From: a virus
Taxonomy: Duplodnaviria > Heunggongvirae > Uroviricota > Caudoviricetes
Direction: 5' to 3' (one strand)
Virus record (IMG/VR): IMGVR_UViG_3300045597_000172
DNA length: 64,000 nt
Shown here piece after piece: positions 11,088 through 44,682 of the stretch. Numbering within the stretch: position 1 is the stretch's first letter; the number at the start of each line of letters is the position of its first letter. Below the pieces are notes generated by a model. That model ran no database searches. It was given only the letters and a program-made list of their open reading frames with translations, and was not told the origin of the DNA. The translations under genes were made by a program, and so were the position numbers.

Positions 11088-11234
11088 AACACAAGCCGTA
11101 AAGGGTACCTTGGCCCTCATGTTGGTTCAAATCCAATTACGGCTATTGCTATTCCAAAAAATATTCGTTATACTGTATCTGTCCAATATTTATATAATTA
11201 TATAAATAATACAGAACACAGGAGGTCAAAAAGA

Positions 11235-11393
11235 ATGTCAGAACGAGAAACATATTCCGTAAGACTATTGCCAAAAATTATGCAACAAGCACAAATAAAA
11301 GCAATTCAAGACGGATATAACAATCGCTCAATCCTAATCGAAAAGGCAATCATCGAATATTTGGAGGCGCACAAAAATGAAACCAAATCGTAA
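11235..11393 (+). CDS. ribbon-helix-helix (CopG/Arc/ParD-like) DNA-binding protein, 52 aa
   Basis: Not in the ORF track because it is under 60 aa. Strong RBS acaggaggtcaaaaaga-ATG. Sequence SVRLLPKIMQQAQIKAIQDGYNNRSILIEKAIIEYLEAH follows the RHH pattern (beta-strand then two helices). Overlaps the start of the nuclease gene. Confidence 0.5.
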   Translation: MSERETYSVRLLPKIMQQAQIKAIQDGYNNRSILIEKAIIEYLEAHKNETKS

Positions 11394-27736: not shown

Positions 27737-28012
27737 ATCTCAGTACGAGGCGCAAAGATTGACGCTAAAAACAAAGAAATTTGTTATATCTGATAACCGA
27801 TTGTGAATTGGTTCAACACCAATACAGAAGTTGGAGCTTAGAATCGGTTAACTTATAAAGTTTGAATCCTTATCGTACTATTTCATGCGTGCATTAACTT
27901 GCCAACCATAATTGGTTGCCGTCGCATAGAACTGCACCGACGTCAGTACAGCGTCGTAAAATAAATTAAGCAACACTCCTACAAGGAAATATTGTGCAGG
28001 TATTTCCATAAT

Positions 28013-28084
28013 TGTCCAATAGTTCAGTGGTAGAATATCTGACTGTTAATCAGAGGGTCGTAGGTTCGAATCCTACTTGGACAG
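28013..28084 (+). tRNA. tRNA-Asn (anticodon GTT)
   Basis: Acceptor tgtccaa/ttggaca. D-arm gttc-agtggta-gaat. Anticodon arm tctga-ctGTTaa-tcaga. T-arm gtagg-ttcgaat-cctac. Confidence 0.75.
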
Positions 28085-28303
28085 TAGATGCTACTAAACA
28101 AAGGCATTGCGCTAATTGCGAAAACCAAATAACATTGTTTACTAACGGTGTAACTAAGCTGGGCTAAATGCATCAAAACGATGCATAAATTATGAGATAT
28201 AAATTAAACGCTGGATTGCAACCAGTTGCTCATAATACCAATATTAAAAATGGTACCATTCTTAATATTAGTAGTTAGGTTCGATTCCTAAACGCTGTTA
28301 TTT

Positions 28304-28369
28304 CGTGATTGTAGCTCAAGACAAGAGTCATCGTTGTGACGAGATATTGGTGCAAATCCAATCAATCAC
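28304..28369 (+). ncRNA. degenerate tRNA-like element (66 nt) with T-loop UGCAAAU
   Basis: Acceptor gtgattg/caatcac (7/7). D-arm-like gctc-aagacaa-gagt. T-arm attgg-tgcaaat-ccaat. Anticodon arm truncated. Confidence 0.3.
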
Positions 28370-28405
28370 ATCATAAAATTCAAAATTGGAAAGGAAGATG
28401 TAAAA

Positions 28406-28669
28406 ATGGAATACCGAGTACCCGTTGCATATGGCTCATACGGAATTGTAAAAGTTAATGCTAAAAACAAGCAAGAACTAATCGAAAAATTATCATCTCA
28501 AGAGTTTATTGCTGAAATGCCATTACCTGACAATCCTGAATATCTCGATGACTCATTCGAAATCGATGTAGATGGTTTAGAATTTGAAGAACAACACGAC
28601 AAAAACGGAAACGCTGTCACCCTAGCATTATCTCATAACGAAATTAAAAAAATAAGAAATCCAGAATAA
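28406..28669 (+). CDS. hypothetical protein
   Basis: RBS ggaaaggaagatgtaaaa-ATG. 87 aa. Confidence 0.4.
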   Translation: MEYRVPVAYGSYGIVKVNAKNKQELIEKLSSQEFIAEMPLPDNPEYLDDSFEIDVDGLEFEEQHDKNGNAVTLALSHNEIKKIRNPE

Positions 28670-29138
28670 AACATTGTCCGCAACGACAATCAGCATTCAT
28701 TAAACTACGTGGTGGAGATGGCGTAGAGTAAAACTCACGTCCAAGAAAAAATACAACATGCTTACATAATGTTGTTGTAAAACAGATATTAAACAAAAAA
28801 TAAATTCAAAGGATGTGATGATCGTGCATAGAAGCCGTTTGCTTCACCGTCCGCGCGACGTTATGATTGAAAATATCAATTCATAAAAAAACAATGCTGC
28901 ATATACTATAAAACATAATTGGTGCGTGGGAAGTTGAAATACTTCTATATCGTTAGTTGCTAAAACCGGCTAATGACGAATTAGAATAGGCAAGTTCCGT
29001 TAAATGTACGCCAACCTAGATCTATGTACGTAAAAGCATAATTGATCGCATAGGAAAGACAGCCAATTTAACTTAAAAAGTCAGCACTAGACAAAAAGCC
29101 GTATCGAAGAACGCGTAATGACGTAATCATTACAAAAG

Positions 29139-29166
29139 TTGACAACCAAAGCCAACATGCTAACAT
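29139..29166 (+). promoter_or_regulatory. candidate sigma-A-type promoter upstream of tRNA-Asn (TTGACA-N16-TAACAT)
   Basis: -35 box ttgaca at 29139-29144, 16-nt spacer, -10 box taacat at 29161-29166. tRNA starts at 29184. Confidence 0.3.
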
Positions 29167-29183
29167 AACGTGTGTTAGTTCAT

Positions 29184-29255
29184 TGCTCAGTAGTTCAGTG
29201 GTAGAATAATTGACTGTTAATCAAGAGGTCGTAGGTTCGAATCCTACCTGAGCAG
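29184..29255 (+). tRNA. tRNA-Asn (anticodon GTT), third copy
   Basis: Acceptor tgctcag/ctgagca. D-arm gttc-agtggta-gaat. Anticodon arm attga-ctGTTaa-tcaag (A-G at the stem base). T-arm gtagg-ttcgaat-cctac. Confidence 0.7.
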
Positions 29256-29533
29256 TTTAAAAAACTATGGAAAGCAAACCATTTAAACTCGGTTATTGAT
29301 TACTGTAGGTCAACAATTTTGTACTATATGCATCAAAGACCCACCGTGCAAAATCCAGCACAAACGAGTCTGAGACATCATTTATTCCATTGATATGTTA
29401 GTCCAACTGACAATTCCGGAAACGGACTAAAATCCGTTGTAGATTAGAATCGTTATTGGATGAGATTACGAAACCGGTCCAATGAATAATGTATCAAGAT
29501 GGTAACAAGGAATAAATACATCAAACAGACGGT

Positions 29534-29605
29534 ACATCTGTAAGCTTACTGGTGAACTATTGGTCTCCAAAACCAAAATTGTTGGTTCGAATCCAACCAG
29601 ATGTA
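29534..29605 (+). tRNA. tRNA-Trp (anticodon CCA)
   Basis: Acceptor acatctg/cagatgt. Anticodon arm ttggt-ctCCAaa-accaa. T-arm gttgg-ttcgaat-ccaac. D-arm imperfect but same architecture as the second Trp gene at 44559. Confidence 0.6.
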
Positions 29606-29766
29606 TAAATCAAATGGTTATATCAATCGTTTGATTCTAGTACCAAAGTCAGCAATAGACTATAACAGCCGTAAAAATAGACGCATACTAACGTAATTAC
29701 TGTATAAAAATCAAACGAAGCATAGTAATTTGATGTGTTATTAAGGTGTAGGATAACATTTATTTC

Positions 29767-30092
29767 GGGCTTGTTTTGGATTCGACAGGGCATTAACGCT
29801 TTAATCTCGTCAACCAGTTAAATATAACTGCAAAAGAAAACACTTTAGTTGCTGCCTAGTTTAACCACTAAATAGCAACACCTCAACCCACTGGCAAAGC
29901 CGTGATAACCAGTGGTTTCAAACACGGATAAGTTAATTATGTTCCATTAACATAATTAATCGAAAACTAAAATGGTTAATGAATGTTTGTCATTAGCAAA
30001 ACTCATTATAAAAAAAATAATTAATGACTATGACGTAAGAATGATTACGGTAAGTGATGTCTTGGACGCGGGTTCGATCCCCGCCAAGTCCA
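29767..30092 (+). ncRNA. ssrA: tmRNA (SsrA), about 326 nt, predicted tag (A)AKENTLVAA
   Basis: 5' end GGGCUUGUUUUGGAUUCGACAGGG (tmRNA hallmark GGAUUCGACAGGG). 3' tRNA-like domain gcggg-ttcgatc-cccgc plus acceptor caagtcc pairing with 5' gggcttg, including a G3-U70 wobble (Ala identity element). Conserved UUAAAUAUAACU precedes resume codon GCA at 29830. Frame GCA AAA GAA AAC ACT TTA GTT GCT GCC TAG ends at 29859. Confidence 0.7.
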
Positions 30093-30284
30093 TAAATCAA
30101 AAAAAAATCGTCAAAAATATCTTGACCAAACTTATATGTTAACATATAAGAGTAGTAGGACCGCATACGCGGGATCCTGAGTACAACTTAGTCTAAAGAT
30201 ACCAAGTTGGAATCAAGCAGAGTCAGCTGCTAAGTCAGACAATTTGAACTACTAATTTTACGATATTTATTAATATCGTATTTC

Positions 30285-30363
30285 GGACTCGAAATCAACA
30301 ACCCTAGGAACGTTGATTCCATGAATAGCTGTTAGCCAGATGGTTTGAATCCATCCGAGTCCA
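30285..30363 (+). ncRNA. degenerate tRNA-like element (79 nt)
   Basis: Acceptor ggactcg/cgagtcc (7/7). T-arm gatgg-tttgaat-ccatc. Middle has a tcaac/gttga hairpin with a 12-nt loop but no anticodon arm. Confidence 0.3.
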
Positions 30364-30394
30364 TTGCACCAAATAAAATAAGAAAGCTGGAAAT

Positions 30395-30955
30395 ATGATG
30401 ACCGATAACATTAAAAAGATTCCACAAATTCCATTGTTACACGATATTCCCTTCAATCAAGAAGACAAAGATCTAATCGTTCAACTATCATTACAAGGTG
30501 TAATTGCATCACTCCACAATGACCCAAAATACGGTTTGTTTTTATCAATCAAGAAACCTATTCGCGGCATGTTGTCAGTACAAATTCTCATCGAAAAAGC
30601 AACTCATGGAAATCTCAAAAAAAGTATTCTTGATAGTTGCAAAAATGCACCTGAACAATTATCAAAAATGCGAGATGTGAAATATTTGGATAGTTTAATT
30701 AATAACATCGAAAACTTCCATTTCATTCGCAAATATGACGAACCTTATTTTAAAGAAAACATTCAGCCATTACTAAACAATCACGCTGAGACAGAAAAAA
30801 TAGATAATAAAATTAATCAATACGAATCTGACACTGGCAAAAAAATTGATCTTACCAAACCTGATTTTCAAAAACGTTTAAACGAAATCCGAAAGATACA
30901 ACGACGAAAAATTCATTTTCAATGTAATCTTATTCGCATTGCTAACAGTATCTAA
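30395..30955 (+). CDS. hypothetical protein
   Basis: RBS aagaaagctggaaat-ATG. 186 aa. Confidence 0.45.
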   Translation: MMTDNIKKIPQIPLLHDIPFNQEDKDLIVQLSLQGVIASLHNDPKYGLFLSIKKPIRGMLSVQILIEKATHGNLKKSILDSCKNAPEQLSKMRDVKYLDSLINNIENFHFIRKYDEPYFKENIQPLLNNHAETEKIDNKINQYESDTGKKIDLTKPDFQKRLNEIRKIQRRKIHFQCNLIRIANSI

Positions 30956-30986
30956 AATTAATCACGGTAATCTATTACCGTGTTAC

Positions 30987-31059
30987 GCAGTTTTAGCTCA
31001 GTAGGTAGAGCATCTGTCTTGTAAACAGAAGGTCACAAGTTCGAGCCTTGTAAACTGCA
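30987..31059 (+). tRNA. tRNA-Thr (anticodon TGT)
   Basis: Acceptor gcagttt/aaactgc. D-arm gctc-agtaggta-gagc. Anticodon arm tctgt-ctTGTaa-acaga. T-arm acaag-ttcgagc-cttgt. Confidence 0.75.
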
Positions 31060-31140
31060 TTGCGGTTAATCCGCAATCTAATTGTTTTCTTCAATAGTAA
31101 ATTATTCCTTTTCCGATATGGTAAATCCATATCGTTTTAT

Positions 31141-31227
31141 GGACAGTTGGCCGAGTCTGGTTTATGACGCTGGCTTTGAACACCAGTTGTGAGCAATCAC
31201 ACACAGGTTCGAATCCTGTACTGTCCG
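31141..31227 (+). tRNA. tRNA-Ser (anticodon TGA), class II
   Basis: Acceptor ggacagt/actgtcc. Anticodon arm ctggc-ttTGAac-accag. Long variable arm with tgtga/tcaca stem. T-arm acagg-ttcgaat-cctgt. Confidence 0.6.
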
Positions 31228-31242
31228 TCCAAATATCTTAAA

Positions 31243-31290
31243 TAGACCTACTCTAATTGAGTGGGCCTATTTTTTACGAAAGCGAAGCGA
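31243..31290 (+). terminator. rho-independent terminator closing the tRNA island
   Basis: atagacctactc-taatt-gagtgggcctat followed by ttttt. Confidence 0.55.
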
Positions 31291-31357
31291 TATCAATGTA
31301 AAAAAAAGTCAAGATCTACTTCAGAAAAAAAATAAAAAAATCGAGGAGTTATTACAC

Positions 31358-32812
31358 ATGTCAACATCTTTAATTATCACTGGAGTAATTGCATTTTTAA
31401 TTGTCATTTTAGCCGTAATAATTATTACAGCATACAAGAAAGTCGCACCTAACGAAGTTCTAATAGTCACTGGTGGTTTTTTAGCTGGACCCTATGTTCA
31501 AACAAATCCACAAACACACACCAAAGTTAAAGTTGTGACCGGCGGTGGTACCTTTGTCATCCCCATCGTGCAACAATCACACATCTATTCACTTGACACG
31601 TTTAACATCGATGTCAACGTAAATGAAATTATGACTAAAGATGCAATTCCAGTTGACGCCGCAGCAAACGCCGTATTACGACCTGCTTCTGAACCACAAT
31701 TACTAGCAGTTGCTGCACAAAAAATCTTTGGCTTAACTGAAGAAGAACGCCGTACTCAAATGGAACAAGTTGTCTTAGGCGGTGTTCGTGAAGTCCTTGC
31801 CGGACTAACACCAATGGAAGCTAATAATCGTTCAAACTTTGCTCACGAAATTGTTACTTCAATTAAACCAACATTCGACAATCTGGGACTGGAAATTACC
31901 GCACTTCAAATCACTAAACTAAGTGATACACATGGCTATTTCGAATCCGTATCTAAACCAAAGATTGTTGATGCCGTATCAGTCGCACGTCAACGTACTG
32001 CTGAAGCTGACAAACAAGCAACATTAGTCGAAGCCGCTAACAATCTTGAAGCTCAACAAGGTAAACTTGATGCTGAGAAAAAGATTGCATTAAGTGAAAA
32101 AGACGTCAAAATTGCTAAAGCACAATACCAAAAAGAAATTAACATCAATGATGAAATGGCCGCTCAAGCTGGTGTCATTACCAAAACAGAACAAGATGCC
32201 ATCATCAAAGAAAAACAAATTGCTGTAAACGAAAACGAATTGAAAGCAACTAAAATTGCACAACAAAAAGCAGAATCAGAAGCAAAAACAATTCAAGCAA
32301 ATAATGATGCTGCCATTATCAAAATTAACGCAAATGCTAACGCAGCAGCAATCAAAACTCAAGCTGAAGCCGAATCAGATAAAATTAATAAAATTGGGGT
32401 TGCCAACGCAGCTGCCAGTGCCGCTAAAATTCGTGAAACTGGTAAAGCTCAAGCCGAAGCACAAGAAAAAATTGCAAATGCGTTATCTAAACATGGCGAA
32501 AATGCAATTATCATGGAAATCATTAAGCAATTACCAATCATCAGTCAAGCTTATGCCGAATCAATCTCCAATATTGATAACTTAACTGTCTTTGATGGTG
32601 CAAAAGGCGTTACAAATCAGCTAGATGCCCAAATGATTCAATCAAGTGAACTTATCAAGAAAGCTACCGGTTTTGATCTTTTTGATTATCTTGGCAAACG
32701 AGGAAACGGTAAATCAGACGTTAACCTAAACCTTAACGATAACAGTAAAGAAGCTCTGACCGAAATAACAAAATCAAACAAATCCGAAACAAATACTAGT
32801 TCAAATAAATAA
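31358..32812 (+). CDS. flotillin-like SPFH/band-7 domain membrane protein (FloT/YuaG-like)
   Basis: N-terminal TM helix IITGVIAFLIVILAVIIITAY. SPFH-like core. About 250-aa Ala/Glu/Lys/Gln-rich coiled-coil with EA-type repeats (AEAESDKINKIGVANAAASAAKIRETGKAQAEAQEKIA) typical of flotillins. Confidence 0.6.
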   Translation: MSTSLIITGVIAFLIVILAVIIITAYKKVAPNEVLIVTGGFLAGPYVQTNPQTHTKVKVVTGGGTFVIPIVQQSHIYSLDTFNIDVNVNEIMTKDAIPVDAAANAVLRPASEPQLLAVAAQKIFGLTEEERRTQMEQVVLGGVREVLAGLTPMEANNRSNFAHEIVTSIKPTFDNLGLEITALQITKLSDTHGYFESVSKPKIVDAVSVARQRTAEADKQATLVEAANNLEAQQGKLDAEKKIALSEKDVKIAKAQYQKEININDEMAAQAGVITKTEQDAIIKEKQIAVNENELKATKIAQQKAESEAKTIQANNDAAIIKINANANAAAIKTQAEAESDKINKIGVANAAASAAKIRETGKAQAEAQEKIANALSKHGENAIIMEIIKQLPIISQAYAESISNIDNLTVFDGAKGVTNQLDAQMIQSSELIKKATGFDLFDYLGKRGNGKSDVNLNLNDNSKEALTEITKSNKSETNTSSNK

Positions 32813-32821
32813 TCAAACAAA

Positions 32822-32852
32822 AAACCTGAACTTATGTTCGGGTTTTATTTTA
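32822..32852 (+). terminator. rho-independent terminator
   Basis: aacctgaac-ttat-gttcgggtt followed by ttatttt. Confidence 0.55.
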
Positions 32853-33062
32853 CTATAACGAATACAAAAAAATATTTAAAAAATTATTAAAAATCGAGTA
32901 TACCAATATATAATTTTATTATATAATAAAAAGTGTGACAATGCTATTATCCAAGATTCCCACGAAAAAAGGAGTGATGCAAAATGAAAAACTTAAATTA
33001 TTACATTAAAAAAACAAAACGAACTAAAAATCGTTTTAACAAAGACAAAGGACGGATCATTA

Positions 33063-36000
33063 ATGAATAAAAAAATAATAGCGAAAAAAGTTTCAATTAC
33101 TATTCTAATTACAATCCTTGGATTAACAAACATGTCAGATGTTTTTTTATTAAAAAATAACATTATACACGCAGATCCTACCAATTGGACACAAACTGCA
33201 AACAACGTTAACGCAACAAACAAAAATCTTATAGACAATGCTGTAACAAATTCAAAAAAGACAGAAAATACAAATTTAATTCAGGATCAAACGCAAACAA
33301 TCGATGCAACATCCTCGAATTTAAATGACATTGAAAATCAAGTCAAAAATAGCAACAACAACATGATATCGGAAATAAACAGCGATACCGAAAAACAAAA
33401 AGCTATTAACGAAAAAAATGAACAAATTGAAAAAGACAACAATTCAAAAAAACAATCATATGAAGCAGCATTAACAAATTATAATAACGAATTAGCTGCA
33501 TATAAAAAAAATCTACAAGATCAAGGATTAAATGATGGTATTGATCCTTCCACATTCAATCAACAACTCCAATTTACTCAAGATGACAGAAACAATACAG
33601 AACCAAAAGTGAGTGTTCAATTGTTATCAGGTGCAGTTAATTACAAAAAATTAATAAGTAATGGATACGGAACTAGTAATTTTCCATGGTCAAATTCACA
33701 TGAAGCTGAACAGATATATGCAAAGAATTCAAACGCTAAATCTATTAACGGTGATTTTGCAAAAATCACATGGGATGGTGTATATGGATATTCATATAAT
33801 GGTATACAAATTAAAAAAATTGTAGAAACATTCAGTGACTGGAAATTAGCTGCTACTAAACATGTAAGTGGCCCTCGTGGAATAACCGTGTATCAAAATC
33901 CAAATGAAAATTTTTGGTATTTAAACGGATCCGACACGACAACAAACTATCAATTTTACGATGAAAACGGGAATTTAATAAATTTCGAACCAAATAACGC
34001 ATACGTCGCGGTAGGTAGTTTGGACAGAGCATATTACGCATACGATTTTGGAAGTCACACATACAACACCAATATCGTAGCCAACCAAATCGAAGAAGTT
34101 CAATTATTGTCAGCCGGAACCGGAATACAATTAACAAACAGTACTATTAGCAATCACGATGGCAACAATATGTTTTCTGATAAAGATAATGTACAAATCC
34201 AATATCAAAATGGTGGATTAACAGAATATGGTGCATTTAACGTTACAGGTGGAAATATTAAACTACATTACCACACAAATATGACAAACGAAGCACCAAA
34301 CGCATCAACATTAACTTCATTTGCAACTATATTTCCATTAAGCTCTGCGCCAAAGAAACCAACAAGTCCAACATACACACCAACAGATCCGACAGTGACA
34401 GATATTCATTATCATTACACAAACATAAATTTAAAATTAACAGTCACAACAAATTATCTTCAAAACAATGATTCAAAAAAACAAGAAGATGGCTCAAAAT
34501 TAGCTGACTCTACAACACAATCCGGAGATAGTAACTCAAACTATTCAACTAGTAAAAAAGATTTCACTGGTTGGCATCTAACTTCTACGCCAACAAATGC
34601 ATCCGGAACATTAACAAATTATGACGTGACAGTTAACTATATTTACGACCGTGATCCCGAAACTGTAAAAGTAAAATACGTAGATGAAGAAACCGGAAAT
34701 GATATTAGCAATCCAACAACATTAAATGGATATTACGGATTATCATATACATCATCTCCGAAATCAATTACTGGTTGGACCTTATCTAAAACACCAAATA
34801 ATACATCTGGAACATATTCAAAGAGTAATGCCGATATCATCTATCAATACAAGAGAAATACCGAAACAGTAACCGCAAATTATCTTGCCAATAATGATAT
34901 TAATAAAAATGAATTTGGACAAAAATTAGCGGATTCAGTAACACAAAAAGGTGGTTTCGGAACAAACTACACAACATCTGCAAAAGATATTTTAGGATGG
35001 CATTTACTTGGAATTCCAACCAATCAAAATGGAACCTACCAAGAAAGTAACCCCGACGTCAACTACATTTACGATCGTGATCCTGAAACGGTAACCGTAA
35101 AATATGTAGACACTAAAGGAAACACGTTAGCAAAAAGCAATACCTTAATTGGATACTACGGATTGGATTATCAAACATATCCTGCAAGTATTGATAACTA
35201 CCACCTAACTGCAATTCCTACAAATGCAACCGGTAAATATTCAAATGGTCCAATTACCGTAACTTACATTTATGACGTTGATCCCGACATCAAAGAAGGA
35301 CTTTCTAACGATGCAATAAACAGTAAAAATTACGATACTGCAATTTCTAACACATCACAAAACGTACAATACAATAATGTTTACCACTATGTTGATAAAA
35401 TCACAGTCGGTGGATCCATGAACCTTACCGATCTAAAAATCCAAACAAATCTACCAAGTGATGTTAATCCAATCGTTAACGGTGGCGACATCAATAATCA
35501 AAACATTAAAGTTTATGTTCGTGAAGATGATGGTTCATTAACAAATGTTACAAGTCAAGGAACACTTGCGTATCAAGTAAACAACAAAGATGTAACTAGC
35601 GATAATAACAAAAATGTCGCAATTGATACTGATAAAACAAGAACTCTGACATGGACACCAAAAACACCATCTGCATTCACTGGAAAACAAATCATTACTG
35701 ATATTCCAGTAAATCTTCAACCAGATGCTGCAAAACTAAAAAGTTATAAATCTGACAACGGTATTAATATCAAACACACCACTCAATTAATTGAATCAAA
35801 TGATTTACCAAGTTCTGGTGAAATAAAAACTGATACCACATCACAAAAAACGTATACCAGCAACAATACAACAATTCAATTACCAAACATCTATACGTTA
35901 AAATTTTACAAATCAGAATTTCAAACCAACGATACAATTAATGGAAAAGTTTGGTTGAAACTATATCCAAACCTTGTCGGACAAGAAGATACAGGTAATA

Positions 36001-37334
36001 AAAAACTAGCAACACTAACAGTTAACGGTACAACTCAAGATGTACAAAGCAGTTTATCAACTAGCAACAAAGAAATTTTAACAAACGTAAATAGTTCAAA
36101 AACTGCTAATAATTCAGATCCAACATTTGATATTAACCTAAAAAGTAATCAAACAAACAGCAGTCAAAATCCAGTTGTTTTAACAAAGAGTCTTATTAAA
36201 GATCAAAGTAACAACAACTCCATTTCAAAAACAACTTACGTTTCAAACGATGATCTTTACACTAGCAAAAACACTGCTGCTCAATACAAAAAAGAAAACA
36301 CCTCAAGTACTGTTGGATCCGCACCTGAAGAAGTTGAAACTTATTACGACCAAGATTTAACAAATCCACAAACAGAAACGACTAACGAAACCTCTCCTAC
36401 TTACGTCAAACTCATGGAATACATGAACGCAAACTATAGTAAGACGGTTAGTGCAAAAGCTGGTTATGGTATTAAAAATGATTTGATTTTAAACTACTAT
36501 GGCCGTCATTTAACAAATCAGTCAACTTCTGATACTGATTTTGAAAAAAATAATCTTGCAACGATCTTTAGTACGGATACGGATTTAACCACTGCCAACG
36601 GAAAAACTTCAAGTCAAATTAACGATAATCAACATGAATTACTTGATTATAATGCCGAAGTCAATTCCGTTAACGACTTAATCAACAATGTCAACAATCT
36701 AACTACGAATGCACAAAAGACAAATTATCTTCAATCGAAACTCGGTACAAACGCCGGAAATTCATTTGTCTATAATCTAGCCGGAAAAGAAAACACACTT
36801 GATCAAGCCGTATCAGACATCAACAAGTCAACTGCCTATGTTAACCTTGATGATAAGACAAAATCATTCATCAATACCGTTGACACCGACACAAATTCAA
36901 AACCGATTGCGCCAAAACTATATAGTATGAATTACCGTTTCAACAAACGACTATTATCATACGAAAATAGTAACAGTAACGGTGTTGAATATTATGACCG
37001 AAACAGTTCACATGTAGCTCAAAACGATGACCAACTAATGAATAAAACCGATCCAATCAGTAGCACAACTGATGGCGGATACAAATTTTATACCAACCAA
37101 TGGTTAAAAATTGGAACATATCCGACACACTACACAAGTAACGAATTTGGAACTAACAATTTCAAATTAAAAGCTGATCGCGATCTAAACATTTATGGCC
37201 GACGTTATCTAACACGTTCTGATACTAAAAATGATGGAGATAAATATGATGACCTATCAATTCAACCTGTCATTTCGAAAAATAGTAACGGAACCGGAAC
37301 TACTATGCCTGACGGTGAATGGAGTAATAAATAA
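33063..37334 (+). CDS. large secreted adhesin-like protein with four MucBP-like repeats (1423 aa); possible phage receptor-binding/adhesion protein or host-surface adhesin
   Basis: Signal peptide MNKKIIAKKVSITILITILGLTNMSDVFLL. Four alternating repeats of about 70 aa between roughly nt 34380 and 35290: TV(K/T)VKYVD..GN.L.......GYYGL.Y and ...NY.T......GWHL...PTN..GT......V.YIYDRDPE. Asn/Thr/Ser-rich. No LPXTG at the C-terminus. Confidence 0.65.
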   Translation: MNKKIIAKKVSITILITILGLTNMSDVFLLKNNIIHADPTNWTQTANNVNATNKNLIDNAVTNSKKTENTNLIQDQTQTIDATSSNLNDIENQVKNSNNNMISEINSDTEKQKAINEKNEQIEKDNNSKKQSYEAALTNYNNELAAYKKNLQDQGLNDGIDPSTFNQQLQFTQDDRNNTEPKVSVQLLSGAVNYKKLISNGYGTSNFPWSNSHEAEQIYAKNSNAKSINGDFAKITWDGVYGYSYNGIQIKKIVETFSDWKLAATKHVSGPRGITVYQNPNENFWYLNGSDTTTNYQFYDENGNLINFEPNNAYVAVGSLDRAYYAYDFGSHTYNTNIVANQIEEVQLLSAGTGIQLTNSTISNHDGNNMFSDKDNVQIQYQNGGLTEYGAFNVTGGNIKLHYHTNMTNEAPNASTLTSFATIFPLSSAPKKPTSPTYTPTDPTVTDIHYHYTNINLKLTVTTNYLQNNDSKKQEDGSKLADSTTQSGDSNSNYSTSKKDFTGWHLTSTPTNASGTLTNYDVTVNYIYDRDPETVKVKYVDEETGNDISNPTTLNGYYGLSYTSSPKSITGWTLSKTPNNTSGTYSKSNADIIYQYKRNTETVTANYLANNDINKNEFGQKLADSVTQKGGFGTNYTTSAKDILGWHLLGIPTNQNGTYQESNPDVNYIYDRDPETVTVKYVDTKGNTLAKSNTLIGYYGLDYQTYPASIDNYHLTAIPTNATGKYSNGPITVTYIYDVDPDIKEGLSNDAINSKNYDTAISNTSQNVQYNNVYHYVDKITVGGSMNLTDLKIQTNLPSDVNPIVNGGDINNQNIKVYVREDDGSLTNVTSQGTLAYQVNNKDVTSDNNKNVAIDTDKTRTLTWTPKTPSAFTGKQIITDIPVNLQPDAAKLKSYKSDNGINIKHTTQLIESNDLPSSGEIKTDTTSQKTYTSNNTTIQLPNIYTLKFYKSEFQTNDTINGKVWLKLYPNLVGQEDTGNKKLATLTVNGTTQDVQSSLSTSNKEILTNVNSSKTANNSDPTFDINLKSNQTNSSQNPVVLTKSLIKDQSNNNSISKTTYVSNDDLYTSKNTAAQYKKENTSSTVGSAPEEVETYYDQDLTNPQTETTNETSPTYVKLMEYMNANYSKTVSAKAGYGIKNDLILNYYGRHLTNQSTSDTDFEKNNLATIFSTDTDLTTANGKTSSQINDNQHELLDYNAEVNSVNDLINNVNNLTTNAQKTNYLQSKLGTNAGNSFVYNLAGKENTLDQAVSDINKSTAYVNLDDKTKSFINTVDTDTNSKPIAPKLYSMNYRFNKRLLSYENSNSNGVEYYDRNSSHVAQNDDQLMNKTDPISSTTDGGYKFYTNQWLKIGTYPTHYTSNEFGTNNFKLKADRDLNIYGRRYLTRSDTKNDGDKYDDLSIQPVISKNSNGTGTTMPDGEWSNK

Positions 37335-37340
37335 CACAAA

Positions 37341-37370
37341 AAACCCGCATTTAACGATGCGGGTTTTTTT
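37341..37370 (+). terminator. rho-independent terminator
   Basis: cccgcat-ttaacg-atgcggg followed by ttttttt. Confidence 0.7.
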
Positions 37371-37515
37371 ATAACTATATAAAAAAAATATGCACAATTT
37401 AATCAAATACCATTGCATTTGTGAAATTTATAAGATAAAATAAAGTTCGTAAGTAATGTGTGCACACACCATATCGTTACATACATCATTCCAAAATAAA
37501 GGAAGTGTTTCAAAT

Positions 37516-37698
37516 ATGCCAGAAGCAATGGGTAATATCTCTTGGTCGACATACGCATTAGTAATTGCTGCCGTTATCTTAGGAGTTGTGCTAATTTCGT
37601 TCCCAGAAATTACAAAATCAATCATGTCATTCTTACAGACAATGATCACTACCGCGGGCGGTAAAATTACCGACACGTTAGCAAAATCAGCATCATAA
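37516..37698 (+). CDS. small hydrophobic protein (60 aa); candidate Flp-type major pilin
   Basis: RBS aaaggaagtgtttcaaat-ATG. MPEAMG-NISWSTYALVIAAVILGVVLI resembles the Flp G/xxxxEYxLIAALIAV pattern with TY in place of EY. Has its own downstream hairpin and T-tract. Precedes a Tad-like operon. Confidence 0.4.
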   Translation: MPEAMGNISWSTYALVIAAVILGVVLISFPEITKSIMSFLQTMITTAGGKITDTLAKSAS

Positions 37699-37797
37699 TA
37701 GCAATAATACAAGTCGATAACGCCGGGAAGATTGAAAAATCGACCCGGTTTTCTTTTTAAAATAAGTAGTAACTCTACAATGTAAGGATGTGAATAC

Positions 37798-38244
37798 ATG
37801 CTATCCGGAAAACTTTATACACTAGGTTTAGTTATGTTTTCAGTCTTTTGCAGTCTTCTAATTGCAATCTATTCAATCATGGAATTCACACAACAAAGAC
37901 TCCAAGGTTCACTTCAAACCGTTACCGAAGAAGCTATCTATGACGCACGGTACGATAACGCACGAAGCACTAATAAAGTTTTTGTACTAGATAAAACAGT
38001 CTTTGAACAAGACCTGATCCATAGCAATATCAAAAGTATTTCCAACGATTCAAGTTTAAAATTAGAATACATGCACGATGATAGTACCGCGGCAAAATCA
38101 CTAAACTTAACAGATTCCCGCATCCCTATCAAAGCAGTTAGAGTAACCGTAGTTGATGGAACAAACGATCACTTAAACAAAACAATTACTTACATCATCA
38201 ACTCAAATTCAAAAACTAAAGACGATGACTTATCAAATAACTAA
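37798..38244 (+). CDS. N-terminally membrane-anchored protein (148 aa); candidate TadE/F-like pseudopilin
   Basis: N-terminal TM helix LYTLGLVMFSVFCSLLIAIYSIM followed by a soluble domain. First gene of the operon containing the secretion ATPase. Confidence 0.35.
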   Translation: MLSGKLYTLGLVMFSVFCSLLIAIYSIMEFTQQRLQGSLQTVTEEAIYDARYDNARSTNKVFVLDKTVFEQDLIHSNIKSISNDSSLKLEYMHDDSTAAKSLNLTDSRIPIKAVRVTVVDGTNDHLNKTITYIINSNSKTKDDDLSNN

Positions 38245-38260
38245 TAAAAAAGGTGAACTT

Positions 38261-39691
38261 ATGGAAAATACAGAAAAAACAAACACTCCAATTACCAAAA
38301 CAGAAAATACCGCAACAAAATTTCACCCCTTTCACGACGACGGTGAAACTGATAAAATCTACAAAATCATCAGTGAACTTTTTGCAGACGAACTAACTGA
38401 AGCACTCTTACCAAAAGGCGATACAAAAAAGATTGTTGAAATTCTACAAACTCGAAAAGAATTTGAAGACTGCACAACTCACGACAATCCGCAACGGGCA
38501 CGTGAGATTGCAACTGATATTGCTGGTTTAGGTGTAATTGAAACTATCATTAAAAAATACAATCATGAAAATATCCAAGATATTGGTTACAACAGTAATC
38601 ACATTTTGACCATTGATACAGCCGAACATAAATTCGTATATACCGAAAAAAACTTTGATCCGCATATCAATACGCAATACATGTTAGGTTTGATTAATCG
38701 GTTAGCGCAGCATGAAGCCCCTTCCGGAAAACAATTCGTAGCTGACTCTCCGATTTATAATGGATCTGCTCATATTGGTGACGGTGACGACCGTATTTAT
38801 CTCCGTATTTCAGCAACACATACAAGTCTCGCACCAACTGGACCAACATTAAGTATACGTGTCTCAAAATCGCACCTAGCATTGACTAAAGAGAACTTCA
38901 ATAACATTGCACCCATGATGATCTACAATCTGTTACACGTCTTTATCGCGGCACACACGAGTATTGTGATTTCTGCCGAAACTGGAGCCGGAAAAACAGA
39001 ACTTCAAAAACTGTTACTTGGATTTGTACCATTTGATGAACGAATTGTTTTAATTGAAGATACAAACGAAATGCATTTGACCACCCTTTATCCAAAAAAA
39101 GATATTTTTTCATGGGTAAGTGATCCGTTACTAACTATAAATCATAAACCTGTTAACACCACTACATTAATCGAACAATCACTTCGTACAAACCCAAAAT
39201 GGTTAATCGTTGCAGAATCTCGTGGTGATGAAGCATACGAATTAATCAGTGGTGCTAGATCAGGTCACCCAATCATCACAACGCTACATGCTACATCAAA
39301 CGCAGCAGTACCCGGACGATTAATTGGGATGTCAGCAATGGGCTACAAATTCAACGAAGAAATGTTAGACCGTGATATTTTAAACTATATCAATATCGGA
39401 ATTCATTTAAACTTAAAATCCAATTATCATGGTCGAAAATTACGGTACATTGACCAAATCGTTGAATACGTACCACGCTCCGAAAAATACCCAGATGGAA
39501 TCAATATACTATTTCAACAACACATCGACAAAAATGGTTACCGCACATACTGGATAAACGAAGCCACTGACAAACTAAAAGATCATATTTACCGTGAACT
39601 TGATGAAAAGCTGAAATATCCAACAATTCAAAAAGACTCACCAAAAAAAGAAAAACTCTTTGAATTCAAGTCTGAAACGGGTGAACAATAA
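38261..39691 (+). CDS. VirB11/CpaF/TadA-family secretion (type IV pilus/T4SS-type) ATPase
   Basis: Walker A ISAETGAGKTELQKL. Asp box RIVLIEDTNEMH. Walker B/Glu box WLIVAESRGDEAYEL. His box SGHPIITTLHATS. ATG at 38261 preferred over track start 38225 because of the aaaaaggtgaactt RBS. Confidence 0.7.
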   Translation: MENTEKTNTPITKTENTATKFHPFHDDGETDKIYKIISELFADELTEALLPKGDTKKIVEILQTRKEFEDCTTHDNPQRAREIATDIAGLGVIETIIKKYNHENIQDIGYNSNHILTIDTAEHKFVYTEKNFDPHINTQYMLGLINRLAQHEAPSGKQFVADSPIYNGSAHIGDGDDRIYLRISATHTSLAPTGPTLSIRVSKSHLALTKENFNNIAPMMIYNLLHVFIAAHTSIVISAETGAGKTELQKLLLGFVPFDERIVLIEDTNEMHLTTLYPKKDIFSWVSDPLLTINHKPVNTTTLIEQSLRTNPKWLIVAESRGDEAYELISGARSGHPIITTLHATSNAAVPGRLIGMSAMGYKFNEEMLDRDILNYINIGIHLNLKSNYHGRKLRYIDQIVEYVPRSEKYPDGINILFQQHIDKNGYRTYWINEATDKLKDHIYRELDEKLKYPTIQKDSPKKEKLFEFKSETGEQ

Positions 39692-40515
39692 TGGCAAAAA
39701 ACAAAAAGATTAAAACTCGAAAAAAAAGATACACCATCAAAGACCTTGATGCGATGGAAGAACTTTACGGTTCACATTTTACAAAAACCACACTTGCACG
39801 AAATTTTCTAACGTACAGTATTGCATCAATTGCTTTCTCCTACGTCCTATATGCAAGTATTCCAATCGTCATCATTTACGTAATACTAAGTTGCCTGTAC
39901 GTTTACTACAACATTATTCCAAACAATGTACGGATGAATTATGAAATGAAAGCTCATGCCGAACGAAATCGTAGTATTAATATCGTAACCCAAAGTTTAT
40001 CGTCTGGACATACATCAATTAAAAACGCCATCAGCATGGCAATTAAAAACTCTAACGGTGAATTTCGCAAAGATCTTAAATTACTATATGCCAAGATCTT
40101 GAGTGATACCACATTCGAAGCAACTCATGACGCATTTACAAAACTAAAAACTAAATATCCTGACGATATCTACTTTGGACTATTCCTAGAACAACTTGAA
40201 GTTGGACTTAACAAATCTCATCCAGATCTAAGAACCCTCATGATCGTGAGAAAATCACACAATTACGAATACAATCGAATTAAAGTCTTTCGTTCCGCAA
40301 AAAGACAAGCGATGCGTGACATGATTAAAATGTTAAGCTTAACATTCGTCGTTTGCTGTACCGTTGCATTTATGTTTGGATATCAAAAGTTTTTAACTAT
40401 GTACGCTCATAACTTAGTCGGAATGGCAATTTCAACATTATTCATGTTCGTACTATTCATGATTATCAAAAAATTCATGAAAATGTATCAAGACACTGCC
40501 ATTAATTCGATCTAA
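39691..40515 (+). CDS. TadB/TadC-like (GspF-family) inner-membrane platform protein
   Basis: 274 aa. TM helices near the N-terminus (IASIAFSYVLYASIPIVIIYVILSCLYVYY) and C-terminus (LSLTFVVCCTVAFMFGY, VGMAISTLFMFVLFMII) with a cytoplasmic domain between. Translationally coupled (ATAATGG) to the ATPase. Confidence 0.5.
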   Translation: MAKNKKIKTRKKRYTIKDLDAMEELYGSHFTKTTLARNFLTYSIASIAFSYVLYASIPIVIIYVILSCLYVYYNIIPNNVRMNYEMKAHAERNRSINIVTQSLSSGHTSIKNAISMAIKNSNGEFRKDLKLLYAKILSDTTFEATHDAFTKLKTKYPDDIYFGLFLEQLEVGLNKSHPDLRTLMIVRKSHNYEYNRIKVFRSAKRQAMRDMIKMLSLTFVVCCTVAFMFGYQKFLTMYAHNLVGMAISTLFMFVLFMIIKKFMKMYQDTAINSI

Positions 40516-40532
40516 GAAAGGAGCACACTTAA

Positions 40533-41387
40533 ATGTTTAACAAACAAAAATCAAAAAACACTACTGAAAAAAAGAGAACAACCAACGTTACCGCGGAAGA
40601 CTTTGATGTTCAAACCATGCGATTAAATCTTGTTCGTGAAGAATTAACATTTCCAGCCAGTTTAATTGGTGATGGCGAACTAAGACTCATGCTCAAAATG
40701 GATACTAAAACACGAGTAATCAAAGGTATCATGGGTAACAGATTCCGTGTCGCAATCGCGGCCGTACTATTTGGACTAATTTTTGGAATGATTTCCAAGA
40801 AGTATTTTATTTTAATGTTGTTCCTAGGAATTTTGATAGCTGCCGTTTCGTGGAATGATAGTATTAAAAAAACAAAAAAATACTACCAAATCTATTCGAT
40901 AAATCGTCAAGTTGCATTTACTGAATTTACTAAAATTGCCGGCGCACTTCTTCCTGAATTAGATAACGGAAAAAACCTCCTATCAATCTTTGAAGAAGTC
41001 AGCAAACATATGGACAATGAAAACGATCGTAAAGCATTGAAACAGTTAATGACACACATGCAGAGTAATAACGAAAGCAGTCAGCCATTTCTTGATTTCG
41101 CCCATCAATTTTCCACCAGTGACCGTGCAGAACTAACCATGCTATACATGCACCAAATGTACCTTGGAAACACGGATACAAGCGGAATCCAATCACTGAT
41201 CAACGATTCAAACGAAGATTACCAAGCACAAACTGAAAAAATAATTACGACCAAAATAAAAAGATTTTACAGCACCGCTACAAAGATCGCAATGAGTGTT
41301 TCAATCGTCGTTTTCGGATATTTCGGCATTTACATTGTCAACATGTTCCAGCACATCTTTAAAATCATGTCCAACGTTAAATTCTAA
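40533..41387 (+). CDS. second TadB/TadC-like membrane platform protein
   Basis: 284 aa with the same TM/cytoplasmic/TM architecture (VAIAAVLFGLIFGMI, ILMLFLGILIAAVSW, IAMSVSIVVFGYFGIYIV). RBS gaaaggagcacactta-ATG. Confidence 0.5.
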   Translation: MFNKQKSKNTTEKKRTTNVTAEDFDVQTMRLNLVREELTFPASLIGDGELRLMLKMDTKTRVIKGIMGNRFRVAIAAVLFGLIFGMISKKYFILMLFLGILIAAVSWNDSIKKTKKYYQIYSINRQVAFTEFTKIAGALLPELDNGKNLLSIFEEVSKHMDNENDRKALKQLMTHMQSNNESSQPFLDFAHQFSTSDRAELTMLYMHQMYLGNTDTSGIQSLINDSNEDYQAQTEKIITTKIKRFYSTATKIAMSVSIVVFGYFGIYIVNMFQHIFKIMSNVKF

Positions 41388-41407
41388 AATAACCGAGGTG
41401 AATAATT

Positions 41408-41776
41408 ATGGACGACGTCAGTATTGGACAACTCATGCATTACCTAACGCTTGGATTATGGATTAGCCTCATTCTATTCATTCTTTGTTATCCAATGTAT
41501 TCAGTTGCACAATTAGTATCATTTCAACAATCATCAGCAACAATTCTATCACGATACGGTGGCGTAACCGCCGATGCCAAAAAAACAGTTAATACCATTG
41601 GGGAAACATATTACAGTAATAAATTCAGTATCGTAGATACCCCAAGCGACAAAACAAGCAATTACGGAGGAAACATTCCATACACAATTCATGTAAGAAT
41701 CCCCGTAATCAGTAACTTAGTCGAAACAAATATCCAAGCCAACACTGAATCAGACGTACGTAACGAAAACAATTAA
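41408..41776 (+). CDS. N-terminally anchored small protein (122 aa); pseudopilin-like, paralog of 41962..42336
   Basis: N-terminal TM helix LTLGLWISLILFILCYPMY. Shares a C-terminal motif Y-[TI]-I-x-V-[RH]-IP-[VL]-I with the 41962 product. Confidence 0.4.
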   Translation: MDDVSIGQLMHYLTLGLWISLILFILCYPMYSVAQLVSFQQSSATILSRYGGVTADAKKTVNTIGETYYSNKFSIVDTPSDKTSNYGGNIPYTIHVRIPVISNLVETNIQANTESDVRNENN

Positions 41777-41796
41777 AAAAAGAAAGATGTGATCAT

Positions 41797-41946
41797 ATGA
41801 AACGCGGTTTTTCAGAATTAGTATTCACAGTTCCCGGAGCGGCATTTATCGCAATGATAATCATTATAATCGCGGCATTTATTTCTCCCAATATGCTTCA
41901 AACAATGTGGTTACTTCTCGTGAATAACAATGGAATCACATTCTAA
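41797..41946 (+). CDS. 49-aa prepilin-like mini-protein (class III signal-like KRGF/SE motif)
   Basis: Not in the ORF track. MKRGFSELVFTVPGAAFIAMIIIIIAAFISPNML. The K-R-G-F-S-E pattern resembles the (K/R)G-F-T-L-[IV]-E prepilin peptidase site, followed by a hydrophobic helix. Confidence 0.4.
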   Translation: MKRGFSELVFTVPGAAFIAMIIIIIAAFISPNMLQTMWLLLVNNNGITF

Positions 41947-41961
41947 GGCGGTGATTAAATA

Positions 41962-42336
41962 ATGGCCCATTTTCCATTTGAAGAACTAATTCGTTGGTTA
42001 TTCATGAGTCTATGTATTGCGTTTTTTATAAATATTTGTGCAATCAGTTTTAACGTAATGCAAATCAATAACTACGAAAAAAATATCGACAATTACATTG
42101 AGAACAACGGAAAACTAGACAGTGCATATATTAACAACAATATTTCACCCAAATTCAACAATTATTTTACCGTAAAGCCCAAATCTACAAACGATGAACA
42201 ACCTCACGACTTTGGTAAAAGTGTTGATTACATCATAACTGTTCATATCCCGCTCATTGCATTTGCAAGCAAAAATGAATCACTTGGAATCAACACCACA
42301 TATTCTGGTTTCAGTACTTCAAAAATTTCAAACTAA
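41962..42336 (+). CDS. N-terminally anchored small protein (124 aa); pseudopilin-like paralog
   Basis: N-terminal TM helix LIRWLFMSLCIAFFINICAISF. C-terminal YIITVHIPLIAF motif shared with 41408. Confidence 0.4.
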   Translation: MAHFPFEELIRWLFMSLCIAFFINICAISFNVMQINNYEKNIDNYIENNGKLDSAYINNNISPKFNNYFTVKPKSTNDEQPHDFGKSVDYIITVHIPLIAFASKNESLGINTTYSGFSTSKISN

Positions 42337-44321: not shown

Positions 44322-44385
44322 TAAAATCAGAAATTGATACTTGCAACATTTACCTCAATCTGATATTATATAACCAAGCAGTTTT

Positions 44386-44459
44386 CAGGATATAGCTAAG
44401 TTTGGTACAGCGCCGCATTTGGGATGCGGAGGTCACAGGTTCAAATCCTGTTATCCTGA
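44386..44459 (+). tRNA. tRNA-Pro (anticodon TGG)
   Basis: Acceptor caggata/tatcctg. Anticodon arm ccgca-ttTGGga-tgcgg. T-arm acagg-ttcaaat-cctgt. Confidence 0.7.
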
Positions 44460-44465
44460 TTTTCT

Positions 44466-44538
44466 GGGACATTAGCGCAATTGGGAGAGCATCTGCTTTG
44501 CAAGCAGAAGGTTGACGGTTCAAATCCATCATGTTCCA
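44466..44538 (+). tRNA. tRNA-Ala (anticodon TGC) with G3-U70
   Basis: Acceptor gggacat/atgttcc with the G3-U70 wobble. D-arm gcgc-aattggga-gagc. Anticodon arm tctgc-ttTGCaa-gcaga. T-arm gacgg-ttcaaat-ccatc. Confidence 0.75.
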
Positions 44539-44558
44539 TAGTTACAAATTTTTAAAAT

Positions 44559-44630
44559 GTGCTGTTACGCTCAATGGTAAACTACCGGTCTCCAAAACCG
44601 GTCATCTTGGTTCGAATCCAAGACAGCATG
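44559..44630 (+). tRNA. tRNA-Trp (anticodon CCA), second copy
   Basis: Acceptor gtgctgt/acagcat. Anticodon arm ccggt-ctCCAaa-accgg. T-arm cttgg-ttcgaat-ccaag. Same architecture as 29534..29605. Confidence 0.6.
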
Positions 44631-44682
44631 TCAAAAAACCACAAATAGAAACCAAGGTGGTATACACGTCAATCAATTTTTC

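Follow-up and report, generated by a model that had tools for sequence, protein, structure and literature searches.

The DNA stretch IMGVR_UViG_3300045597_000172, a record of 64,000 nucleotides filed among the Caudoviricetes and called here, as a whole, the window, encodes at positions 31358..32812 of its plus strand a 484-residue protein (ATG start, stop codon included in this range) that is a full-length homologue of the flotillins and belongs to the SPFH/Band 7 superfamily. As a protein it is unremarkable within its known family; the unusual part is its location, on a giant tRNA-rich element that is probably a phage and beside a conjugation-type adhesin/ATPase module. Phage-borne flotillins are rare and this one is under selection, which is what makes the case interesting, and a defined donor clade together with an adjacent candidate client make the purpose of an element-borne membrane scaffold testable. 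The reading that we favour on balance, with some confidence but by no means a high degree of it, is that with this flotillin the element supplies its own membrane organiser rather than a dedicated subunit for the neighbouring apparatus.

A flotillin by sequence and by fold

An earlier note, made from the letters of the window, had described an N-terminal transmembrane (TM) helix, an SPFH-like core and a long Ala/Glu/Lys-rich coiled coil, and all three are borne out. The core is matched by the Pfam family Band_7 (PF01145) over residues 28-219 (31439..32014) and over profile positions 2-176 of 176, with a score of 72.6 bits (E=5.6e-20), well above the cut-off of 23.6. In an AlphaFold2 (AF2) model of the monomer, built from 56 homologues and with a mean predicted local distance difference test score (pLDDT) of 76.6, the same core reaches a pLDDT of ~90 and is composed of strands in residues 26-109 and 178-190 and helices in residues 113-176. 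The SPFH fold, on whose presence the earlier note had staked its assignment, is thus there in the model. When the model was compared with the PDB by Foldseek, the top four matches were chains of the human flotillin-2 and flotillin-1 cages (9bq2 and 9l3g; E ~1e-19, the best 1.6e-19), followed by HflK/C, stomatin, prohibitin, erlin and the major vault protein; the Foldseek probability was 1.0 for flotillin, HflK/C, stomatin, prohibitin and erlin alike, and the Band-7 domain structure 1win superimposed with a root-mean-square deviation of 2.4 Å. A phmmer search of PDB sequences aligned residues 29-442 to flotillin-2 (E=1.1e-25) and flotillin-1 (E=7e-24), and by sequence as well as by fold the flotillin chains rank above every other SPFH family.

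The regions flanking the core complete the flotillin domain order. The sole strongly hydrophobic stretch of the protein, residues ~4-26 (31367..31435), with Kyte-Doolittle values of up to 3.4 in 19-residue windows as compared with no more than 1.6 in all others, is modelled as a helix (residues 2-25) and would serve as the membrane anchor; the tripeptide YKK that follows it suggests, by the positive-inside rule, that the remaining protein is cytoplasmic. Downstream of the core, residues 220-380 (32015..32497) consist of 23.6% Ala, 13.7% Lys and 10.6% Glu, align to the coiled coil of flotillin-2, and fall within two long modelled helices (residues 194-271 and 280-379) that are succeeded by C-terminal helices and a disordered tail. 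This Ala/Lys/Glu-rich region corresponds to the oligomerisation wall of solved SPFH cages. Residues 381-445 (32498..32692) form the conserved C-terminal flotillin region and contain the clade-invariant residues P393, T410, G414, T437 and D440, all clade-invariant positions being kept. The last part, residues 446-484 (32693..32809), is a poorly conserved tail rich in Asn, Lys and Ser, two segments of which (residues 451-460 and 475-484) have a pLDDT below 50. This gradient of constraint is visible in the comparison with the closest relative, P0002 from locus L017, which is 82% identical overall, 88% in the SPFH domain, 91% in the C-terminal region and 49% in the tail.

How close, then, is the protein to the FloT/YuaG-type flotillins to which the earlier note had assigned it? 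Membership in the flotillin family holds over the full length; the narrower type does not. Two profile scores speak against so specific a label. The NCBIfam FloT equivalog (NF058507) aligns over positions 1-470 of 477 and yields 215.8 bits, far from its cut-off of 700, which is why the protein is best called a homologue, not an orthologue, of Bacillus subtilis FloT or of YqiK. The Pfam flotillin family PF15975, which the earlier note had proposed to scan for, matches residues 351-421 with 14.4 bits (E=0.04), below its cut-off of 27; because most clade relatives (see below) do carry precomputed PF15975 matches, this low score is better read as a weak signal than as the absence of the region. 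Operons of FloT/YqiK type typically also include an NfeD-type partner, in that yuaF precedes floT and yqiJ precedes yqiK, even though this pairing is not strictly defining. No such partner is found here: the upstream 186-residue open reading frame (ORF) has no Pfam match and is separated from the flotillin gene by two tRNAs, and NfeD is likewise absent from the precomputed Pfam annotation of the neighbours in loci L001, L002, L017, L019, L021 and L026. Taken together, the protein is very probably a flotillin-type oligomeric membrane scaffold, with its oligomerisation and its topology being what we infer.

Donor clade, gene unit and selection

A large protein search returned the identical protein on contigs of up to 236,971 bp, the single relative at 82%, and then a clade of flotillins of ~450 residues with 41-54% identity, including those of L. 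equi and L. pabuli, everything else being at ~30% or lower. Seven L. salivarius megaplasmids in PLSDB carry clade members at ~50% identity (on one of them, NZ_CP123973.1, IscB and TnpB genes lie near the flotillin), and among species-representative genomes only L. equi is close. In a neighbour-joining tree the window protein pairs with P0002 on a long branch, and the pair is nested within this Ligilactobacillus clade. The genomic surroundings of the clade are of several kinds. On chromosomes its members are flanked by adhE and dihydroxyacetone-kinase genes or lie in the vicinity of genes for PBP and Mur ligases; on the linear megaplasmids of L. salivarius the flotillin gene comes after those for ParA, a phage-type replication protein and DnaB, in this order, and before those for a LysM protein and FtsK/SpoIIIE; one lies on a plasmid-like contig with ParM/Alp7A and sortase; and another, of 447 residues and 47% identity, is encoded at 10001-11344 of a siphovirus-type phage or prophage (L026, Logan ERR11560468_1480). 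The last of these stands in an accessory region, 3' of LemA and a nicotinamide mononucleotide transporter and 5' of HicB, HNH, TerS, TerL and portal genes. Given this mixture of chromosomal, megaplasmid, plasmid-like and prophage contexts, the clade is horizontally mobile among the Lactobacillaceae and their mobile elements, and it is from this Ligilactobacillus-type flotillin pool that the window gene was acquired.

Among viruses, by contrast with this pool, such genes are rare. A search with a motif drawn from the clade alignment picked up more than 512 relatives among metagenome contigs, but only two among the 2.9 million contigs of IMG/VR, each of L. salivarius-plasmid type. These two, IMGVR_UViG_2529292852_000001 and IMGVR_UViG_2791355382_000001 (loci L004 and L005), have a gene order in common with the linear megaplasmids of L. 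salivarius (L029, NZ_CP123973.1) and, although filed as viral, are probably plasmids or phage-plasmids. When the flotillin was compared by tblastn with 50,697 phage records, seven matches emerged, all below 31% identity and mostly in fragmentary records, and no PHROGs family matches it. The clear phage case is a 'flotillin family protein' (WOZ57345.1) of csAssE-Sib, a 151-kb genome from the human gut (OR575929.1). SPFH genes have also been noted in Xanthomonas phage X1 and Gibbsiella phage GIB1, in papers that assign them no function, and no functional study of a phage-encoded flotillin was found in the literature.

The signals surrounding the gene, all on the plus strand, mark it as a transcription unit of its own. 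Upstream lie a tRNA-Thr(tgt) and a tRNA-Ser(tga) at the end of a tRNA/tmRNA island (30987..31231), and then a hairpin with a T-run (31247..31274) that would end the upstream tRNA transcript. Immediately after it comes a conserved non-coding motif, TACGAAAGCGAAGCGATA (31275..31292), which is unique in the window and has been kept in L017 despite a synonymous divergence (dS) in coding sequence of more than 1; it is possibly a promoter or an operator. A promoter or regulon shared with other genes through this motif was considered and rejected on account of its uniqueness in the window. A Shine-Dalgarno sequence, GAGGAG (31343..31348), is located 9 nt 5' of the ATG, with AAGGAG in the same place in L017. 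On the other side, 9 nt after the stop codon, the terminator scan detected a strong intrinsic terminator with an 11-bp stem and a T-rich tail (32821..32856, listed also as 32821-32846); in L017 a terminator occupies the same position, with other stem bases that are yet still paired. It is followed by a promoter-like TTAAAA-16-TATAAT (32887..32914; 10 of 12 consensus positions), in a region also kept in L017, before the adhesin gene. The layout of L017 in fact equals that of the window from tmRNA through tRNA-Ser, hairpin, flotillin, terminator and conserved promoter-like region to adhesin, and the flotillin gene is by these signals a self-contained monocistronic unit. The tmRNAs themselves are found at 29767-30092 of the window, near the end of the island (tag AKENTLVAA), and at 3657-3998 of L017 (tag AKRNTLVAA).

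Is this unit still of use to its carrier? Between the flotillin and P0002 the ratio of nonsynonymous to synonymous substitutions (dN/dS) is 0.08 at a dS of 1.3; synonymous sites are saturated at this distance, and the low ratio indicates strong purifying selection. In the same pair of elements, the ATPase and the membrane proteins discussed below have ratios of 0.02-0.04, and the adhesin has one of 0.21. The rarity of flotillins in viral collections could suggest a spurious join, that is, an assembly chimera or a decaying passenger from a host with no function at all. However, three samples independent of one another (JGI 3300044212, SRR16379729 and SRR35178714) contain the identical protein in an unchanged neighbourhood, which together with the dN/dS of 0.08 excludes both chance and an assembly artefact; the ORF is intact and preceded by a strong Shine-Dalgarno sequence, and every clade-invariant residue is present. 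The notion of a functionless passenger is in effect refuted, and there is every reason to expect that the flotillin is functional in the element.

The carrier element and the module downstream

The element is at least 237 kb long (the 236,971-bp contig), of which ~110 kb were read, namely the window plus ~16 kb upstream and ~29 kb downstream. What kind of element is it? Its gene content argues for a huge phage. The window alone has 18 tRNAs and a tmRNA, with 15 of the tRNAs in the island at 22540-31231 and three at 44385-44632; genes lie nearly all on one strand across the ~110 kb; and PHROG matches in the window comprise helicases, clamp-loader-like ATPases, RtcB, RNase H, guanylate kinase and several families of unassigned function that are confined to phages, UDG being part of the element's gene content as well. 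The flanks beyond the window add NUDIX, T4 gp30.3, N4/N6 and Dam methylases, endonucleases, NrdD/NrdG, an ATP-dependent DNA ligase and a strong match to a phage-only PHROG of unknown function (phrog_12834, E=1.6e-62). In the stretch ~9-29 kb past the 3' end of the window (L030/L033, Logan SRR16379729_5468), a WDGH-domain protein, a second Endonuclease_NS and a cREC_REC-domain protein were seen too, alongside the N4/N6 and Dam methyltransferases, NrdD/NrdG and the DNA ligase, and all on the same strand.

That the flotillin is located 'in a phage', as the earlier note had it, is therefore likely from gene content, but the claim carries a burden: no capsid, terminase, portal or tail gene was found in the ~110 kb, and the assignment is made from gene content only. 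It is conceivable instead that the carrier is a giant plasmid or phage-plasmid, either a lactobacillus megaplasmid or something resembling pXO16, a 350-kb 'terra incognita' that has an aggregation locus and otherwise matches little in the databases (PMC9673590), in which case the flotillin would be plasmid-borne. Besides the missing structural genes, this alternative can draw on a 404-residue actin-like ParM/Alp protein (824-2038; MreB-like_C, PHROG 'partition protein') that hints at plasmid-like segregation, on the presence in the window of an adhesin/VirB11 module of pLS20 type, and on the plasmid genes among the nearest flotillins. It has to contend, though, with the tRNAs and tmRNA, the near-uniform strand, the suite of NrdD/NrdG, DNA ligase, Dam and N4/N6 methylases, T4 gp30.3, RtcB, RNase H, UDG and helicases, and the strong matches to phage-only PHROGs such as phrog_12834; moreover, relaxase, VirD4 and VirB4 were not seen. 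On this evidence the element is probably a huge phage, and a plasmid or phage-plasmid nature is the distinctly less likely of the two.

Homology searches with the rest of the element gave little to place it by. The window DNA resembles known phages and plasmids at the tRNAs only, tblastn of the element's proteins against GenBank phages returned distant or uninformative matches, NrdD relatives in IMG/VR do not exceed 48% identity, and PDB sequence searches with three large unknown ORFs gave no match. A 1125-residue ORF (19086-22463) stands out by a G+C content of 0.42 as compared with ~0.34 around it; neither Pfam nor the PDB yields a match to it, and PHROGs only a marginal one, to a tape-measure family. 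A 620-residue double-AAA+ protein (6145-8007), an unusual cargo for such an element, is a ClpE/ClpC/ClpA-type Hsp100 unfoldase (PDB E=8e-82). Its PHROG label, 'ATP-dependent protease', raised the idea of an FtsH link in the style of HflK/C, which was rejected, the protein being Hsp100 and not FtsH.

The flotillin gene lies 3' of the tRNA island and 5' of the adhesin and ATPase genes, so that the placement given in the earlier note, between the island and adhesin and pilus-like genes, agrees with the coordinates. The adhesin (33063..37334) has 1423 residues, a signal-peptide-like N-terminus and four MucBP domains; its L017 counterpart bears GbpC, MucBP and PXO2_28_C domains. Directly upstream, a 28-codon ORF, MKNLNYYIKKTKRTKNRFNKDKGRIINE (32984-33070), has a strong Shine-Dalgarno sequence and extends, in a different frame, across the start codon of the adhesin. 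Three assemblies show it unchanged, the L017 adhesin begins directly at that Shine-Dalgarno sequence, and the small ORF may be a translational leader for the adhesin. The adhesin is followed, at 37798..42336 and likewise on the plus strand, by a 148-residue TM protein, an ATPase, membrane proteins of 274 and 284 residues, and TM proteins of 122, 49 and 124 residues. The ATPase (38225..39691, 488 residues) belongs to the T2SSE family and is equally similar to CpaF and VirB11; its best plasmid matches, with 37.8% identity, are to the pLS20-family conjugative plasmids of B. subtilis, and no close relative of it was found in IMG/VR. The 274-residue protein is homologous to the protein in p38 position of the pLS20 family (25% identity, E=4e-25); its AF2 model from the single sequence is poor (pLDDT 61), and the best Foldseek matches of that model, to GspF/PilC-type platform domains, are not significant (E of 0.55 or higher).

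The order of the pLS20 operon, as tabulated in PMC8557374, is the Tie adhesin (gene 34), p36 with one N-terminal TM segment, the VirB11-like p37, and p38, p39, p40 and p41. The module at 33063-42336 is collinear with genes 34 and 36-41, each protein having a counterpart of matching size and TM pattern. The genes that the earlier note had called 'Tad-like' do include an ATPase of CpaF/VirB11 type, yet from these sequence comparisons they would be better named the leading portion, concerned with attachment and VirB11, of a conjugation operon of pLS20 type, of which VirD4, VirB4 and relaxase have no counterpart in the window. This leading portion is a little-understood part of the pLS20 operon, and its presence here connects the conjugation machinery of Gram-positive bacteria with a giant phage-like element.

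Possible roles and known systems

What would a membrane scaffold do for such an element? In the mechanism that we favour, the single N-terminal helix would anchor the flotillin in the cytoplasmic membrane of the host, with the SPFH domain resting on the inner leaflet, and the Ala/Lys/Glu helices together with the conserved C-terminus would drive homo-oligomerisation into a ring or a dome of the kind known from the cages of flotillin, HflK/C, stomatin and prohibitin (human flotillin-1/2 is a 44-mer hetero-oligomer according to PMC13000311), so that the assembly would fence off a patch of membrane. The gene, captured from the Ligilactobacillus-type pool and kept as monocistronic cargo under purifying selection, would raise the efficiency or stability with which membrane and secreted proteins are inserted and assembled while the element occupies the cell. 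The first candidate clients would be the 1423-residue adhesin and the pLS20-like CpaF/VirB11 apparatus just downstream. The identity of the client is, however, something that we infer, and that the adjacent envelope module is the main one is somewhat doubtful. Three observations count against it: a strong terminator and a separate promoter-like site stand between the flotillin and the module; an ATPase of CpaF/VirB11 type occurs within 10 kb of a flotillin in only 2 elements, the window's and the 82% relative's, out of 91 flotillin loci; and no machine of this sort accompanies the clade flotillins of chromosomes or of the siphovirus prophage, from which it follows that a flotillin of this clade works without one.

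The same observations bear on the stronger proposal of the earlier note that the flotillin nucleates a raft dedicated to the adjacent Tad-like (CpaF/VirB11) machine, co-localising with the ATPase and being needed for assembly. The adjacency on which this idea was built is real in this lineage, where the order flotillin, adhesin, 148, ATPase, 275, 284, 122, 49 and 124 residues has been kept in the 82% relative at a dS of more than 1, and it has precedents in flotillin-dependent secretion, such as that of FloA with the type VII secretion system in Staphylococcus aureus (reference 118 of PMC13245101) or that of the Agrobacterium type IV and type VI secretion systems, which, according to PMC8656257, occur in detergent-resistant membranes together with SPFH proteins. 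The flotillin of the L. salivarius megaplasmids also stands 5' of an envelope module (LysM, FtsK/SpoIIIE), which is suggestive only. Nevertheless, besides the separate transcription unit and the relatives that lack any such machine, pLS20-family plasmids run the homologous module with no plasmid-borne flotillin, and with the pairing confined to one lineage, in 2 elements of 91 loci, a dedicated scaffold role is speculation and on the whole rather unlikely. A somewhat better candidate, albeit still a minority one, is a cargo of general membrane fitness that would adjust fluidity or integrity, or buffer envelope stress, during long infection or carriage and would have no specific client. It would suit an autonomous, monocistronic gene whose clade works in chromosomes, plasmids and the moron region of a prophage beside LemA and HicB, and bacterial SPFH proteins have been tied to membrane stress and to PspA recruitment (PMC8581546); it would, on the other hand, turn the conserved placement beside an envelope module in two diverged elements into a coincidence.

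It could also be imagined that the flotillin alters the membrane against DNA injection or transfer by competing phages or plasmids, since members of the clade turn up repeatedly in the accessory parts of mobile elements and since the position 5' of the adhesin is where pLS20 has its surface-exclusion gene ses (gene 29). Such exclusion or defence is improbable: the flotillin is not homologous to Ses, PADLOC-DB v2 has no match for it, for three relatives or for its neighbours, stand-alone chromosomal copies sit among housekeeping genes, and no precedent was found in the literature. The favoured account of an element-supplied membrane organiser, finally, has a bolder form, in which the flotillin of a huge lactobacillus phage organises a membrane platform for a plasmid-derived adhesin/CpaF-VirB11 apparatus of pLS20 type. 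This is a long shot, but were it true, a virus would be equipping its host with a machine for cell contact or of pilus-like type, which might serve aggregation, spread from one cell to the next or a transfer resembling that of plasmids, and the raft scaffold for it would come from the virus as well.

How does this arrangement compare with known systems? pLS20, which shares the module, has no flotillin, uses a thioester-domain adhesin in place of one with MucBP domains, and carries further on the VirD4, VirB4, VirB6 and relaxase genes that the window lacks. B. subtilis FloT (YuaG) and Escherichia coli YqiK resemble the window protein in domain order and in their N-terminal membrane attachment, and differ from it by an adjacent NfeD gene, which the window flotillin lacks; flotillins of Bacillales and Kurthia are ~25-30% identical to it. 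Human flotillin-1 and -2 share the SPFH domain, coiled coil and C-terminus at 23-26% identity, but attach by acylation or a hairpin, unlike the window protein, which would do so by a TM helix and has no paralogue in the window. In csAssE-Sib, a flotillin-type gene is seated in the DNA-metabolism region of a complete Caudoviricetes genome; its 566-residue product, 26% identical to the window protein over 55% of the query, is preceded by a small TM protein, and neither an adhesin nor an ATPase module is nearby.

The closest likeness remains with the Ligilactobacillus clade, whose members, including WP_284650780.1 from the linear megaplasmid NZ_CP123973.1 of L. salivarius ZSA5 and those of L. equi and L. 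pabuli, are 45-54% identical to the window protein over ~90% of its length. They share its architecture of TM anchor, SPFH domain, coiled coil and C-terminal region, its want of an NfeD partner and a frequent carriage on mobile elements. The window protein and P0002 are set apart from them by their own long branch and by a longer Asn/Lys/Ser tail, and the company kept differs as well: whereas the flotillins of the L. salivarius megaplasmids have ParA/DnaB and LysM/FtsK for neighbours, the window flotillin has the adhesin/CpaF-VirB11 module.

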